The position numbers and the translations under genes were made by a program. The notes under the pieces were generated by a model that saw only the letters and a list, made by a program, of their open reading frames with translations, searched no databases and was not told the DNA's origin. Shown in pieces: positions 27,900 to 36,939 of a stretch of 64,000 nucleotides of DNA (position 1 is its first letter; the number at the start of each line of letters is the position of its first letter). This DNA comes from Squalus acanthias (taxonomy: Eukaryota): assembly GCA_030390025.1 (NCBI GenBank), contig CM059427.1:28396001-28460000 (forward strand), read 5' to 3'.

Positions 27900-29169
27900 C
27901 AGCTGCTATATCTAACAACAGAATCGGCACGATTTATGCTCTCTCACCTTGGTCCTCAGAATCTGATGACGATCAGCCGCAGCAGCAGCAGAACCAGCCA
28001 CACCAGCAGCAGCAACAAGAGCGCCAAACCTTCTCCTGAACCACCTGATGCAGCACAGGGCATAGGGCATCAGCGCAGGGCTGCACCGCGCCAGAGGCGA
28101 TACCCCAACACAGGGTATACAGGCAGAGGATGAGCTTCCTCAACATGACAGAGCAACAGTGTCACAGGAGGCTTAGGCTATTGCGCTAGGTCATCACCGA
28201 CATTTGCAGATTGCTGGAGCAAGACCTGCAGTCCAGAGAAGGGGTGGACACCCCTTACCAGTAGCTGTCAAAGTCACCCTTGCCCTCAACTTCTTCGCCT
28301 CAGGCTTCTTCCAGGCATCTGCAGCAGACATTTGCGACATCTTGCAGTCGGCTGCCCACAGATGCATCACACAGCTCACTGATGCCCTCTTTAACAAGTC
28401 TGCCAATTATATCCATTTTGCCACTGATGCAGCCAGTGTCAATGAGCGTGTGCTCGGCTTTGCCACTCTAGCTGGCTTCCCACGGGTGCAGGGCGTCATC
28501 GACTGCACACATGTGGCCATCAGGGCACTCCATCAGAACCCAGTAGTATTTGTTAACCTCAAGGGCTTCCACTCCCTTAACGTGCAGCTGGTCAGCAACC
28601 ACAGGAAGATTATCATCCATGTGTGCGCCAAGTTCCCTGGAAGCTCCCATGACTCTTCCATCCTGCACTACTCCACCGTCCCTCAGCTTTTCGTTCCGCC
28701 AAACAGTCTTTCTGGCTGGCTGCTTGGAGACGAGGGCTATCTCCTGAAGACGTGGCTCATGACACCTTTGAGGAGGCCAACAAAAGAGCCTGAGGGATGA
28801 TATAATCAAAGCCACATCTGGACGAGAAGTGTCATAGAACAAACAATAGGCTTGCTGAAAATGCGCTTCAGATGCCGCGACAGATCTGGAGGAGCCCTTC
28901 AGTATACACCAGCCAGGGTCTCCAGAAGAGTCGTGGTCTGCTGTGCCCTGCACAGCATAGTGCAGCAGCGAGGATTAGCACTGGATGAGGAAGACGGCGC
29001 AGACTGCACAGCCTCATCGGAGGAGGAGAAGGACAAGGAGGAGCACCATGAGGTTATAAACAAGGATGATGAAGACCTGGAGGAGCCGGCGGTGCCATTG
29101 CGACCAGCACGTGAGCATGTTGCTGCCCGTCATGCCAGGGGTGCCCTAATCAATGCCAGATTTAATTAA
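27900..29169 (+). pseudogene. Harbinger DDE transposase, frameshifted
   Basis: [52 protein letters not shown], acidic tail ending ALINARFN*; stop/frameshift near 28800; start position approximate. Confidence 0.88.
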
Positions 29170-29888
29170 CTTTATGCAGCTCAGACATGTGGCTGCCACA
29201 GGCGTGAGCAGATTGGCATCACCCCACACCAACACCATAGAGCAGTCAAACAATGACTAGTCCCTTGTTTTCACTCTCACCACCATTGCTGGCTGTGAAA
29301 TGAGCCCTGACCGTTCACTCTGCCACTTCCATTTGAGCACACACATTTGGCAACGACTGCAAAGTGTGACAAATAAATGATTTCATCTAATATAGAGATG
29401 ACAGTGATAATGAAAAAGACACCTGAGTGACTACCCTTGTGACTATTTGTGTGGGATCTTTCTTTTCCGGGTGCTTCTACGTGGTGCTACAGTTGTGGCT
29501 TCAGCAGAGGTAGAGGCAGCCTCCTCACCTCCCTGCTGCGCCTGCTTAGACGCCTTTGGGTTTTGGAGCCTGTGATGGCCCCGCCAAAGTCTGCTCCTCC
29601 TGTGACTGTGCAGGGGCAGACTCGGCCATTGCTGTCCGGGGAGCCATCTGGGGCTCTGACCGAGGGGTTGGCAAGGGAGTGGAAGTCTGAGCGCTTGGAG
29701 AGGAGCCCCCACTTCCATGTTCCCTCCCGACATCATCCCTCTCATGGGCCACCCGCACTGCTCTGCTAGCAAGTAGCTGGAGAGCACCTTGCTGCACTTC
29801 ATAGGGGCCATGAGGGCCCATGTCCATACTGACATCCCTCCTCCAAACGATGTCTGTGAGCCTCTGGTTTCTCTCCTCCATAGATGCC

Positions 29889-30104
29889 TGTCATAAATCG
29901 CAAGTAACAACTCAGGAAGTACTACTGGGCGGCCAGCTGGGGCGCCGTCCAGGGAGTATAAATACTCAGGCATGGGCCCACCTTGGGCAGAGACAAATCT
30001 GGAAACAGGAAGCTAGTGACTGCTAACTAGACCGCCATGTTTTGTTACAAGTTGATTAAAGCCTTGCTTTATGTTCAAGTGCGTAGTGAGTCTTTATTAC
30101 GTCA
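29889..30104 (+). repeat. 5' LTR
   Basis: TGTCATAAAT...TTACGTCA; TATAAATA at 29957-29964; ATTAAA at 30055-30060. Confidence 0.95.
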
Positions 30105-30204
30105 ATTTAATCAACTTGATATCGTCTCCACGCTTTGGGTGATTCGGAACAACCAGCTGCAACTCGAACCACAGAAGGGAACTAGGGCAAGAAACTGATC
30201 CATC

Positions 30205-33200
30205 ATGGAAAAACTCCTTAGACCCGCTCGTCTCGACCTGGACCCGAATGCACCTGCGGCAGCGAAGGTATGGAAGCATTGGTTTCGTACCTTTAGCAAC
30301 ATTCTTGAAGAATGTGGGGCGGATGTCCCTAATAAGTTACGAATGCTTATCAACTACGTGTCTCCTCATGTGTATGATTATATTGAGGACTGTATAGACT
30401 ATGACACTACTATCGAAATCTTACAGCAGCTATATGTCAAGTCCCCAAATGAAATCTTTGCTCGACACCTACTGGCCACAACTCGGCAGCAGCCTGGGGA
30501 ATCACTCGATGAATTTCTCCAGAAACTTCGCAGGCTCAGCAAGGATTGTAACCTTAAAGCAGTTACAGCTGAACAGTATCAAGAGGAACTAATCCGCGAT
30601 TCCTTTATCAATGGGATCGCGTCCCCTTTTATACGTCAGCGCCTGCTGGAAAATAAAACCCTCAATTTACGGGCTGCTTATGACCAGGCGTGTTCCTTGG
30701 ACTTGGCCAAGAAAAATGCAGACACTTATCTCCCACCACGTGCACGGGCGGCGGCTATCTCCTTTAATGAGTCTTTCGGTAGGTCTCGGGCGGATGCCCC
30801 CTCTGATGTCGACTCTACTCTAACAGACGACGACCCTACCCTAGAGGCCTTCGCTGATGATGACCCCGCCCTAGCAGCATCCTGGCAATCAGGAAGAAAG
30901 TGTTTCTTTTGTGGAGGGGCGTGCCATCACAGAAAATTTTGCCCGGCTCGTAATGTGACCTGCAATCATTGCAGCAAGAAAGGACACCTTTCCAAGGTAT
31001 GCCAGTCACGGGCCTTTGCTAACAAGAAAGGCCGCTCCTCTAAAGTATACCGGTCGAGAGCTCCTGTTAGCTTCACAGCTGCTATCTATGGAGCTGCTCC
31101 TCCCCCAGGAACCAATGTTAAGGCTACAGTTGCCGAAGGGAAAATTGCCCCTCCTCCCATCACGGCTGTTTTTCCCCAAAGTTTGTCCCATGCAGCCACG
31201 ACGGTTTCAGTAAATGGGCACACTCTAAGCGCGCTAATCGACTCCTGCAGCTCTGACAGCTTCATTAGTAAGCGGGCTGTCAACAGGTTAAAACTGCACA
31301 CTTATCCCTCGGACAGGGAGATTGCAATGGCTCTGACGACTCTGACCACCAATTCTTCTGGCTTCTGTCTTGTCAACCTCATCCTCAACGGCCGCACGTA
31401 TCTCTCCACCCGGCTCGGAGTACTCGAAAACTTATGTAGCGATGTGCTTCTGGGACAGGACTTCCAGAAGCAGCACAAGAAGATCACTTTTGAGTTTGGA
31501 GGGTCAAGGCCGGAGCTTACCATTTCTAAGGTGCCATTTTGTGCACTCTCGGCGGCCTTACTCGGTGAACCCTCCCTGTTTGCCAATCTTCCCCCCCGCT
31601 GTAAACCCATAGCCACCAAATTGCGGCGCTTTAGCCAAGACGATCGAGCGTTTATTGAGGCGGAAATCTCTCGCCTTTTAGTCGACGGTATTATCGAGCC
31701 ATGTTCATCTCCCTGGCGGGCTCAGGTCGTCATCGTGAGGAATCCCTTAAAACAACATAAAAAACGTCTGTGTATCGATTATTCGCAGACTATTAATCAA
31801 TATACCGATCTGGATGCCTACCCGCTGCCACGCATAGATGACATGGTCAACAACCTTGCCAAATACAAGGTATTCTCGACCTTCGATTTAAAAAGCGCGT
31901 ACCATCAGGTGCCACTGCAAGACTCCGACAAGAAGTATACGGCCTTTGAGGCCAATGGTCGGCTTTTCCAGTTTCGCCGCCTTCCATTCGGGGTCACCAA
32001 TGGGGTGGCCGTCTTCCAACGGGCCATGGATGGCCTAGTCCGGCAAGAGAACTTGACGGATACCTTTCCGTATTTAGACAATATCACTATTGCCGGCCAT
32101 GATCAAAAGGAGCATGACGCCAATCTTCAGAGATTTTTTGACGTACTCCGCCGTCGCCACTTAACGTTAAACGAATCCAAATCGGTGAAGTCGGTGCCAT
32201 CGGTGAACATTCTTGGCTACTGGGTGGGCAACGGTGTTATTAAACCGGACCCAGAGCGACTTCGTCCACTTCAGGAGCTCCCTCCCCCGACGAACCTCTG
32301 CTCTCTTCGTCGGGCACTTGGCATGTTTGCTTATTACGCAAAATGGATACCACACTTCTCCGATAAAATACAGCCCCTGCTCCATGCGAAGTCTTTTCCA
32401 TTGGAAGCTACGGCTATTTCTGCCTTCAACCTCCTCAAACGACGGCTGGAGAAAGCCACGCTTCGCTCCATTGACGAAAATCTTCCTTTTGTGGTCGAAT
32501 GCGATGCATCGGAGGTGGCGATCTCCGCTACCTTGAATCAAGGTGGCCGACCCGTGGCATTCCTATCCAGAACCTTGCAGGGTAGCGAGCTCCATTACCC
32601 CCCCGTCGAGAAGGAGGCTACGGCCATCATCGAGGCTGTACGCCAATGGGGTCATTTTCTTGCTCGGCGTCATTTTACGCTTATAACTGACCAGCGCTCT
32701 GTGGCCTTCATGTTGGATAACCGGAGGCGCACGAAAATCGAAATAATAAAATTCAACTCTGGAGGATGGAGCTGGCTGCCTTTGGATATACTATCTGTTA
32801 CCGACCCGGCAAACAGAACGTGGCCCCAGATACCTTCACACGGGCATTTTGCTCCTCAATGTCAACGTCGACTCTGGCGGATTTGCATATGGACTTATGC
32901 CATCCTGGTGTGACCTGCATGTTGCACTTTGTGCGCTCCAAAAATCTACCATTTTCAACCGAGGACGTAAAGAAAACATGCTCCTCCTGTAGGATTTGTG
33001 CAGAATTGAAACCACAATTCTTTCGCCCATCAGATGGCTTACTCATACATGCAATGCAGCCTATGCAGAGGCTCAGCATAGACTTTAAAGGGCCATTGCC
33101 TTCGTCGACAAGGAACACCTACCTACTTACGATGGTGGACGAGTATTCACGCTTTCCCTTCGCCTTCCCCTGCCCTAATATGCTTACCTCTACGGTAATT

Positions 33201-34145
33201 AAATGCCTCGATCAGGTCTTTTCCCTTTGCGGGACGGCCAATTTTATCCACACTGATCGGGGTCCCTCCTTTATGTCGAGTGAACTTAAAAGTTATCTCT
33301 CCCAACGGGGAATCGCCTCAAGTAAGACTACACCATATCACCCAATCGGTAACGGACAGGTTGAACGATACAATGCCATCATCTGGAACGCTGTCCGTCT
33401 GGCACTAAGGTCACGCAACCTGCCGGACCAGCAGTGGGAAACGGTGCTCCCCGACGTGTTACACTCTATTAGGTCTGTTCTCTCCACATCTACTAATGTC
33501 ACGCCTCATGAGCGATTCTTCAAATTCCGGCGTCGCTCTACACATGGGACGTCTCTACCGTCATGGTTGGTGGCTCCAGGCCCGGTGCTACTCCGGAGGT
33601 TCGTCCGGTCTGCCAAAAATGACCCTCTCGTTGACGAGGTGGAGTTAACGGAGGTAAACCCCACGTATGCGCACGTACGGTACCCTGATGGCCGGGAGGC
33701 CACCGTCTCGCTCCGAGATCTGGCTCCCTGCCCAACCGGTCACACAGGTCCGAATGATGAAGGATCCCCCGACAATGATATCAACACTCCGCACCCCTAT
33801 GAAAATGACGCCCCGCCTGGGACATCGGGGGATCTGCCGGCAACGCTACCGGATCAACTCAGGGAGCTGGACGCTCCCCGTAGGATGGCCACCCGAAACC
33901 AGGACGCCGGACAATCTCCAGCCACGACCCGGGATGAGGCCAGCTCAGCACCTGTGGGGACCCGCACCCGGAGTCATGATATTCCCAGTCCTCCACAGGA
34001 TGATCAAGATGACGCGGACTCTACTGACTTACCGGTACGGGCCAAGCGACCCAGGGACCAGGACACGGTCCGGGGAGACGTGCCTTCCAGTCACAAGCAG
34101 AGAGCTAAACGTCTACGGCTATTTCTGGTCCGCCTAGTCCGTTAA
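30205..34145 (+). pseudogene. Gypsy gag-pol polyprotein, one reading frame broken by a single 1-nt frameshift at ~32740
   Basis: Two CX2CX4HX4C knuckles, protease LIDSCS, RT (RLCIDY, DLKSAYHQ, LPFG, YLDN), RNase H (ECDAS, EKEA, TDQ), integrase (H...H...CSSC...C, IDF, TDRG, GNGQVER); ORFs 30205..32913 and 32766..34145 join if one base is restored in ...ATC GA AAT AAT AAA ATT CAA CTC TGG AGG ATG. Confidence 0.93.
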
Positions 34146-34183
34146 AGGAAGACTGGACTTCCAAACCTTTTAGGGAGGAAGAA

Positions 34184-34399
34184 TGTCATAAATCGCAAGT
34201 AACAACTCAGGAAGTACTACTGGGCGGCCAGCTGGGGCGCCGTCCAGGGAGTATAAATACTCAGGCATGGGCCCACCTTGGGCAGAGACAAATCTGGAAA
34301 CAGGAAGCTAGTGACTGCTAACTAGACCTCCATGTTTTGTTACAAGTTGATTAAAGCCTTGCTTTATGTTCAAGTGCGTAGTGAGTCTTTATTACGTCA
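34184..34399 (+). repeat. 3' LTR
   Basis: Identical to the 5' LTR except ACCGCC versus ACCTCC (one substitution seen by eye). Confidence 0.95.
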
Positions 34400-36939
34400 A
34401 TGCCCATCTATTTTGAAGTGAAACTATGTTCTCATGAGACTGGCATAGTGTTTCCTCCATGCAGGTGGCCATCCTATCCATGGAGGAAGCTATAGTTGCC
34501 AGTGACTGCGCCACGGTGTTGCTCATGTTGGAGAAGGACTCCTCCATTCTCTGCACACTCTCAATCACCGCGGACGCGAAACCAGTCAGAGCCTCCTGCA
34601 CTTGTTCCTGCAGCTCCAGGATCACCCTCTTCCTGGATGGCCCCCGAGGCTCAGCGTCTGCATACAGCTGAGCAGAGCTAGGAGACTTCTGCGCCCTCCG
34701 ACAAGGAGTCTCCACTGCTGTCACTGTCTCCACCATCTGCTCTTGTTCACTTGTGATCTGTGAGACATCAGGTGACAACACTACTCTATCTCACAACAAA
34801 CACACCGAGGTGTGCGTCTCTGCGCTGGTGCTGGGTTGCGTTGTCTGAGGTGACGCTGCGCCCTCAGAGGCAGGAGGCTCCTCTGAGGAGTCTTCTTGCT
34901 GTTCCTCCTGGACAGTGGGGGGGGGGGGGGATCTTGGTGGACCTGTGGGAGAGTAAAAACATCAGTGACATATACGAGATGTCGACTGCAGACACATACC
35001 ATTATCCACATGATGAGCATTCATTTTCTGTTGACATCAGACCCCATATGAGTGACTGATGAAAGGCATGCAAGTGTATGGAAAATAATTGTGGCTTCAG
35101 CAGAGGTAGAGGCAGCCTACTCACCTCCCTGCTGCGCCTGCTTAGACGCCTTTGGCGGTCGTCCTCTGGGTTTTGGAGCCTGTGATGGCCCCGCCAAAGT
35201 CCGCTCCTCCTGCGACTGTGCAGGGGCAGACTTGGCCATCACTGTCCGGGGATGGATGAAGGTCCAAGGGATGTTGGGGTGAGTAACGTGCAGGAGTAGG
35301 GTTGACAATGCAGAGCGGTGGGGATGTGATGACAGGCACAGCAGCATCAAGGTAAGTGTGGCTTTATACTCACTTTTCCTGATCTCAGAAGATCATTGAA
35401 CCTCTTCCGGCACTGCACCCAGGTGCGAACCACCACTGACATCCCCGTTACCTCCAGCGCTATCTGCAGCCACGCTGCCTTCACCTGCTGGGGAGACCTC
35501 TTCCTACCATCAGTAGGGAAAAGAACCTCCCTACGTGCTCTCATCTTGTGGAGGGAGTCATCAGAGAAGTGAGGAGCTGCTCTTTGGCACTGGGAGCTCA
35601 TACTGCAGACCTGCACAGACTGCCAGCACTGAATTGTCTGAAATTGCAAGTGACAGCAAATGGGGCTATGGCCCCTTTAAATATACCGGCAAGAATCGTG
35701 TCATCCGGTGACGTCACCAGACCCGCACCTTTTAATTGGGCCGGGAAACGCGCAGGGCTGGTCTAACAATAGGGGAAGGCCCATTAAAGGAAGATCATCT
35801 TTTTCGCCGGGATCAACGCAGCAGTGGGGTCGTCCCCCGTTGCTGCCCTCGCCCGCCTTGAAGCCGCCCAGGTAGGCGAAATCACGGCCTGAGTGTATGA
35901 ATAGCTAAAGAGGGGTAGAAAGGGAAGCATGATAAATGGAAAAGCAGAGCAGGTTCTAATGGCTTGGGAGTCTGGTGGAAGAAAAAAGCAGTTCGACACC
36001 AAGGGTGCAGACCACCCTGTCAATGGTGTTCGGATGGTCGGGGGGAGGGGGGCAGAAAAGAGGTATAGGAATGTTAAAAATCTGGTGAGAAGATATTAAA
36101 TATTAGAACCTGATGTTTTTTGTGAAATTATTCATCAGGCTAAACGGAGTGTTGTTCATACAGGCTATAGAAGTAAAGGGTTTGAGAGTCCTTTTAAGTT
36201 CATATATATTGGCTCTGCTTCTCTTGACCACCGACAAAGCTCCATGGGAAAGTTTTTTTTAAAAGTAATTAGCCCTGGCATTGCCCATTTTCTTGAGTGA
36301 AGCATGGCCGAGGCGCAGTCACTGACCCCTGCCTTACTGCAGCAGTGTGTGGTGGCCATGGTGCTGAGCCAGGTTAAGGGTGAGCTGGGCTTCCGCAGCA
36401 GGAGCTGGGAGTTCTGCAGCAGTGGAGAAAGAATCCATGCAAAGCTGCGGGAAATGGGATGGCTTGTAGAGCCTTGATATGTGCAGCTAGAAGGTGAGCA
36501 ACACCGCAGTGATGCACTTGGTCATAGCCAAAGCCTGAGTGGGGGCCTGCAGGGCAAAGGAGAGCATGATTTTAATAATGTCATAGCTGCAGCTTGATGT
36601 GGAGTGATTTGAAGAGGCTGCTAAATCCAAGTATATAGCTGGGATTTTCCGCTGCTATACCACTTCAAATCAGGTGTTTCACTGTGGAAAATGCAGTAAG
36701 ATCAGTTAGGGAGGTAAAAGCCATATTCCAACTCAACCAAAATTTTCCTCCAACTGTCCCAGCAAGGAAAGCTGCCTGCCGCCCCTTCACTGCCCCACAC
36801 ATGTAAATGACAACAAGGAAGCGGCACCCAGTAACCCGGCCCATTTCCATGCCTTCTGCCACAGATCCTGCTGAACCCAGGGTCAACTAAGAGAGGGGTA
36901 GTCCCTGGAACAGGGGCAGAAGGCCCACTTAACCTTTTA

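Follow-up and report, generated by a model that had tools for sequence, protein, structure and literature searches.

The window, a stretch of 64,000 nucleotides of Squalus acanthias DNA, contains a Gypsy element that very probably primes its reverse transcription with its own RNA in one form or another. Since the element lacks a tRNA docking site and the position at which copying would start pairs with its own LTR, a primer derived from the element is likely, and self-priming is further supported by covariation of the paired sequences in relatives and by strong-stop footprints at the edge of the LTR arm. The form that we consider probable resembles that of Tf1 and uses the arm of the 5' LTR (30048-30060). 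To our knowledge, self-primed reverse transcription has been proven only for Tf1 of fission yeast.

A Gypsy element and its LTR-complementary primer site

The element spans 29889-34399 (4,511 bp; all oriented features lie on the plus strand) and is flanked by the target-site duplication (TSD) ATGCC (29884-29888 and 34400-34404). Its 216-nt LTRs, with TG...CA ends, occupy 29889-30104 and 34184-34399 and differ only at base 30034. The first frame (30205-32913) encodes Gag, with two CCHC knuckles at 30901 and 30961, protease, RT and RNase H, whose D, E and D residues are all present. This frame is lost at ~32740 in the window copy, and a second one (32721-34145) carries the end of RNase H and an integrase; a chromodomain search of the window element gave no match. 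A polypurine tract (34173-34183) follows, with AA before the LTR's TG. The TG...CA LTRs, TSD, polypurine tract and Gag-PR-RT-RH-IN order identify a Ty3/Gypsy LTR retrotransposon, and the closest solved relative of its RT is Ty3 RT. The RT motif at 32071-32082 reads YLDN rather than YxDD; since many full-length relatives share it, the motif is a trait of the clade and not a sign of damage.

The family of the window element is young, abundant and recently active. The host genome (G000) holds 1,279 candidate 5' ends of the window subfamily, and all 40 that were scored showed 99-100% identity, while 150/150 scored Gag matches of the family were at 98-100%. Two 5' ends (G000:C5:93135442 and 93139728) lie 4,286 bases apart and likely represent a tandem pair with one common LTR. 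Within the window, broken DDE_Tnp_4 transposase frames, which we take to be Harbinger-type, occur upstream of the element (28177-29169), and related repeats (29493-29642 and 35089-35252) sit on either side of it.

The LTR pair and the ATGCC duplication fix the end of the 5' LTR at 30104, and the earliest TGG 3' of it is found at +32. Past a single spacer A (30105), the primer-binding site at 30106-30118 is the exact reverse complement of the arm at 30048-30060, giving 13 pairs, and pairing ends sharply, with 30047/30119 and 30061/30105 unpaired. The chance of such a 13-mer 0-3 nt from the LTR end, calculated from composition, is ~2e-5. The arm contains ATTAAA (30055-30060), and a TATA box (TATAAATA, 29957-29964) lies 91 nt ahead of it, which would imply a transcription start at ~29989; the sister subfamily in the host genome has the same spacing from TATA to an initiator-like CA. 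An earlier note on this DNA had described an LTR ending at 30104 with no TGG after it, an exact complement one base from the LTR edge, a poly(A)-like hexamer in the arm, a TATA box ~90 nt ahead and the lack of a chromodomain, and all of these held when rechecked.

The stem was predicted in 24/24 folding windows, with probabilities of 0.8-1.0 for the central pairs, and its three innermost U-A pairs were predicted to fray (0.43-0.86). The stretch from the arm to the LTR end (R'/U5, 30061-30104, 44 nt) includes a predicted hairpin at 30083-30100, and its fold energy was no better than that of shuffles (p 0.23). All 13 pairs were kept in 45/45 distinct 5' ends read from the window subfamily, a set selected in part by similarity to the stem region itself. 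RNA contigs from two runs span the LTR and leader, contigs being unable to show RNA ends; one run searched as raw reads had 0 reads on the element, and one further RNA run yielded nothing. A second copy of the arm in the 3' LTR (34343-34355) likely contains the working poly(A) signal and is a rival candidate for the primer.

Covariation of arm and primer site among relatives

The earlier note had proposed covariation among relatives as a check, and the relatives provided it. A protein search returned 226 of them, with soft coral, crustaceans and an ascidian as the named hosts, and an alignment of 54 was used to fetch 80 metagenome loci and 8 genome-collection loci. Thirty-one loci had a Gag start; six with <150 nt upstream were excluded and 25 were assessed. 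A CA-A-TT junction and stem were found in 20/25. The remaining five (L087, L103, L124, L132, and L138) had no stem, their upstream DNA being decayed or not LTR, and no tRNA-type site was found in them. Removing 5 near-duplicates from the 20 stem loci and adding the window element and the sister subfamily gave 17 leaders, in which the LTR end was set by a second LTR in 11 (by solo LTRs for the sister subfamily) and solely by the junction motif in the other 6. Two scans of viral contigs returned no relative. Contigs L161-L168 are filed as bacterial MAGs and carry animal-type retroelements, probably through host contamination.

The primer site matched its own LTR at at least 11 of 12 bases in all 17 selected leaders and at 12/12 in 14, although the letters of the arm differ among them. 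When leaders were paired with foreign LTRs, 12 matches occurred in 2/272 combinations and at least 11 in 32/272. Both sides have changed at most of pairs 3-13, while pairs 1, 2, and 10 are invariant, pair 10 being G-C in 17/17. The duplex is 12-15 bp long, with an invariant AA at its 3' end and RC(C/T) after the arm, and the arm ends 20-65 nt from the LTR end. The spacer A is present in 17/17 leaders, where it forms part of the anchoring rule. Compensation is visible at close range: L083 and L089, of one family, differ by a single compensated pair, and in the sister subfamily pair 12 has changed from A-T to C-G. Since the leaders are related, with L083/L089 and L082/L085 close to one another, the number 17 overstates their independence. 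The arms of the window element and L089 are identical over 13 bases, with RT-RNase H only 57% identical, suggesting that the letters of the arm are constrained beyond pairing.

As a control, we fetched 12 other Gypsy copies from G000; a TGG site was present in 9/9 with two LTRs, and in five control copies the longest complement to the copy's own LTR was 4-6 nt, as opposed to 13 in the window element. Within the older sister subfamily, 12/12 pairs were intact in 15/25 copies and an uncompensated mismatch occurred in 10/25, three of these ten carrying the identical change at pair 3. Most relatives also have AA before the TG on the polypurine side, and in several the primer site lies only 2-4 nt from the start codon. 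Judged from these alignments, pairing of arm and primer site is a lineage trait of the whole clade. Two further features of the leaders were observed. A hairpin of at least 4 bp begins at the first base past the arm, beside the candidate cut, in 12/17 leaders (4.5 expected from shuffles), the window having no perfect run there; and the 5' LTRs of L070 and L125 are missing the region from arm to primer site, as if a hairpin had been skipped in copying.

Aberrant insertions and the source of the primer

We searched the host genome for primer sites that run on as inverted LTR and found three such loci in the window subfamily and eight in the sister subfamily, with 0 in reversed-pattern controls. 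A fold-back pattern search returned three loci, one of them new. The aberrant insertions sort into four classes (A, B, C, and D), and the footprints that map ends all come from the sister subfamily, none from the window subfamily.

In all four class C fold-back copies (L175, L178, L182, and L185), whose flanks and junctions are all different, the minus-sense copy of U5 halts 1-3 bases into the 3' edge of the arm. The stop reads GCT in three, one with a 2-nt ambiguity, and GCTTT in one; its equivalent in the window is 30060 in three and 30058 in one. After the stop the sequence folds back and continues through U5, spacer and primer site up to the U3 start. The TSDs are exact in three copies and agree at 4/5 bases in the fourth. 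This stop was not imposed by the search, since the extended-site pattern ignores it and the fold-back pattern allowed spacers of 21-81 nt. Class C likely corresponds to strong-stop DNA copied from an RNA that would have been cleaved at the edge of the arm.

The seven class A insertions begin at the TG of CCATG, 10 nt 5' of the arm. Three were seen first, and four more true ends were among 15 matches of a directed search, the other 11 being deletions (4), later insertions (2) and point variants (5). One of these four ends belongs to a copy that consists of R-U5 alone and carries a TSD; over all seven insertions the duplications are exact in 5/7, agree at 4/5 bases in one and are offset by two bases in one. 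At a control TG 18 nt upstream, 0 true ends were found in the 38 matches read of 80, the unread matches having the same prefix as the variants read. By homology to these sister-subfamily ends, the RNA 5' end in the window likely falls at the A of CCATG (30035-30039), i.e., at ~30037 and 11 nt before the arm; the TGTTG at class A ends is also close to the end consensus for integrase (PMC3601003). The earlier note had judged the pairing partner, ~90 nt past the TATA box, to be probably not at the cap site, and the seven ends weaken that argument, while a start directed by the TATA box may still apply: the footprints put the RNA 5' end 11 nt upstream of the arm, whereas the TATA box puts it 59 nt upstream. 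Starts at 29989 or on the first base of the arm would escape detection among integrated copies, as neither would produce an integrable end. A CCATG core, which we take to resemble a YY1 site, lies 11-22 nt 5' of the arm in several lineages (L130, L137, L161, and window 30033-30043), though not in every one. Two solo LTRs (L299 and L302) are broken by another repeat at almost one spot, the ATG of CCATG, and one sister-subfamily solo LTR has been multiplied within a tandem array on C3 (L313-L319).

Class B is a single whole-LTR snap-back (L176). In class D (L172, L173/L174, and L177), the inverted part is joined exactly at the arm's last base, 34355, and runs through the polypurine tract into internal sequence, ending in a normal 3' LTR and TSD. 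Both classes show only that primer site and arm paired during copying, and the identity of the primer is undecided by either. A simple inversion through the 13-bp repeat was ruled out as the origin of L172-L174, the far ends being normal 3' LTRs with TSDs. A capped primer of 72 or 23 nt would show as an extension halting at 29989 or 30037, which was found at 0/11 loci, and a search of G000 for 2-LTR circle junctions, allowing 0-30 nt from one end to the other, gave none.

These footprints suggest a sequence of steps for priming by the 5' arm. The arm at 30048-30060, whose complementarity is observed, is predicted to fold onto the primer site over a 45-nt loop. The element's own RNase H, by analogy with Tf1 alone, would be the likely cutter, and the footprints place the cut most likely between 30059 and 30060. 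The freed 3' end of the arm would start minus-strand copying, its first two bases, AT, lying outside the LTR's CA; copying would halt at the new RNA end, 30060, and the short strong-stop DNA would move to the identical sequence in the 3' LTR. A cut at 30059/30060 would give a two-base extension past the CA, matching the AA at the polypurine side. The primer's own 5' end might be ~30037, as the footprints suggest, giving a primer of ~23 nt with 11 unpaired bases; the arm's first base, by analogy with Tf1; or ~29989, as the TATA box suggests. An unpaired tail of 11 nt would produce a flap during the second strand transfer, which counts against priming by the 5' arm, as do the mismatched older sister copies described above and the lack of the Tf1 leader duplex.

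Alternatively, the primer could be the arm of the 3' LTR, supplied as a very long primer by the far end of the RNA or by a second RNA copy, a reading that we consider unlikely. All 11 extended-primer-site loci pass from the primer site into inverted U3 and continue to the U3 start or past it, and such run-on, which speaks against the 5' arm, is what a long 3'-LTR primer would be expected to give without an extra jump. Moreover, the class D loci continue past the polypurine tract from a junction at 34355 and are not simple inversions, and the seven class A insertions have their ends ahead of the 5' arm, as though that arm were uncut. However, identical products would arise, whatever the primer, if plus-strand strong-stop DNA mis-paired with an arm; the four fold-back copies halt at the edge of the 5' arm; and a long primer would give no plus-strand stop and would remove the acceptor end of its RNA. 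Considering the local 5' hairpin, with its predicted probabilities of 0.8-1.0, the class C stops and the precedent of Tf1, we favor the 5' arm. The self-priming proposed in the earlier note is therefore supported by covariation and strong-stop footprints, with the 5'-arm form the probable one and the 3'-arm form much less so.

That note had also suggested a hairpin that conceals the poly(A) signal of the 5' LTR and leaves the 3' copy exposed. In its strict form, the stem would do no more than allow full-length RNA to be made, and some other RNA would be the primer. The arm does end in ATTAAA, an AWTAAA hexamer lies within the arm as read in 9/17 leaders, and the complement follows the 5' LTR only. 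However, 6/17 leaders keep the stem without the hexamer on either pairing strand, the complement always lies one base past the LTR's CA, in the position of a primer site and with no TGG nearby, and occlusion would not account for the strong stop at the edge of the arm. Since the stem persists without the hexamer and a primer would still be needed, occlusion as the main function is very improbable and could at most be secondary; where the arm holds the hexamer, keeping the poly(A) machinery away from the 5' ATTAAA may be an added advantage. Still more remote is priming at 30105-30122 by a host tRNA, tRNA half or other small RNA, with an incidental LTR match: half-tRNA priming does occur in some copia lineages (PMC6317226), but the best match among 44 distinct host tRNA genes, nearly all Lys and Cys, was 6 nt, and the site varies together with the LTR of its own element, also when two subfamilies of one genome are compared.

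Comparison with known elements

The literature searched, with Repbase and GyDB outside its scope, ties self-priming to the Tf1/sushi chromoviruses and one plant copia lineage, and the portions of it seen hold no report of self-priming in a non-chromovirus animal Gypsy clade. What is new here, at the level of sequence, is the set of aberrant integrated copies bearing on the cut site, in what would be a variant of the known Tf1-type mechanism. A more ambitious reading joins several elements: a large non-chromovirus animal Gypsy clade would have acquired self-priming independently of Tf1/sushi, with a geometry of its own (an arm that lies off the cap and ends in a poly(A) hexamer, fixed AA and G-C anchors, a small hairpin by the cut and no pretzel fold); a single stem would serve both to protect the 5' poly(A) signal and to supply the primer; and mis-integrated cDNAs would be footprints that locate the cut and the start of the RNA with single-base precision. 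We put this combination forward tentatively, as somewhat less than evenly likely. If the clade does prime itself, tRNA-free priming would be commoner than assumed, occurring in a widespread, recently active animal clade without a chromodomain, and annotation based on primer-binding sites would overlook an entire clade. The aberrant insertions give exact coordinates at which both the cut and the RNA start could be tested, and they suggest a general approach in which priming intermediates might be read from genome sequence alone. The finding is also relevant to the question, raised previously (PMC3601003), of whether hairpin priming is the ancestral state of LTR elements.

In a quick RT-RNase H tree, the window element and 16 relatives formed one branch with 100% support. 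The earlier note had called the element Mag-like. Tandem CCHC knuckles in Gag are a feature of the Mag lineage, and the element resembles its A, B, and C clades in its short LTRs, single gag-pol frame, two knuckles and lack of a chromodomain. That likeness in Gag stands, but the label is not supported by the RT tree: the RT-RNase H is ~30% identical to that of the TGG-site elements of G000, which we take to be Mag-type from their Gag and RT motifs rather than from a named Mag reference, and these form a separate branch. Unlike the Mag-type copies of G000, the window element has no TGG tRNA-type site after its LTR, and many members of its clade carry YLDN in place of YLDD. A second point of comparison is Cigr-1, which has short LTRs and a single frame of ~1,210 codons; full-length relatives of the window element are mostly 1,150-1,260 aa, and an ascidian is among their hosts. 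We treat identity of the two clades as an assumption and a lead only. The name 'Selfy', which we believe to have been given to such elements, led to no paper in our literature search. Members of the Cigr-1 clade are described from Ciona intestinalis as well as from molluscs and annelids (PMC6238403, PMC8556966), and a motif search in five supplementary files of the former gave no match.

The closest mechanistic parallels are Tf1 and Tf2 of Schizosaccharomyces pombe, Tj1 and the Tf1/sushi group, in which the site after the 5' LTR likewise complements a stretch of the LTR and no tRNA site is present (PMC7175516, PMC4600332, PMC10085805). In Tf1 the duplex with the primer site involves 11 bases, and cleavage by RNase H falls between bases 11 and 12 (PMC7175516); release of the primer by cleavage at the duplex's 3' edge, demonstrated there, is suggested here by the footprints. 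Elements of the Tf1/sushi group bear chromodomains and fold their RNA into a three-duplex 'pretzel' (PMC10085805). In contrast, a chromodomain was found in 0/20 relatives scanned and in none of the precomputed domains of 120, and a duplex between leader and loop was no better than shuffles in 12/12 testable leaders (p 0.17-0.9; 16 folded). The arm also shares bases with a poly(A)-like hexamer and may sit away from the cap, and the clade has its 12-15 bp duplex with the 3' AA, the G-C at pair 10 and RC(C/T) past the arm. The element is kept out of the Tf1/sushi group because a chromodomain and a leader duplex were looked for and not found; a search of G000 for a chromovirus reference gave weak matches only, none with a usable RT. 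Finally, the plant elements Tcn1 (gypsy) and TAR (copia) also carry a complement to the 5' LTR of at least 10 nt that starts 0-5 nt after it (PMC6317226). They belong to other hosts and lineages, and whereas self-priming in those elements was proposed from complementarity, here integrated footprints bear on the cut as well.
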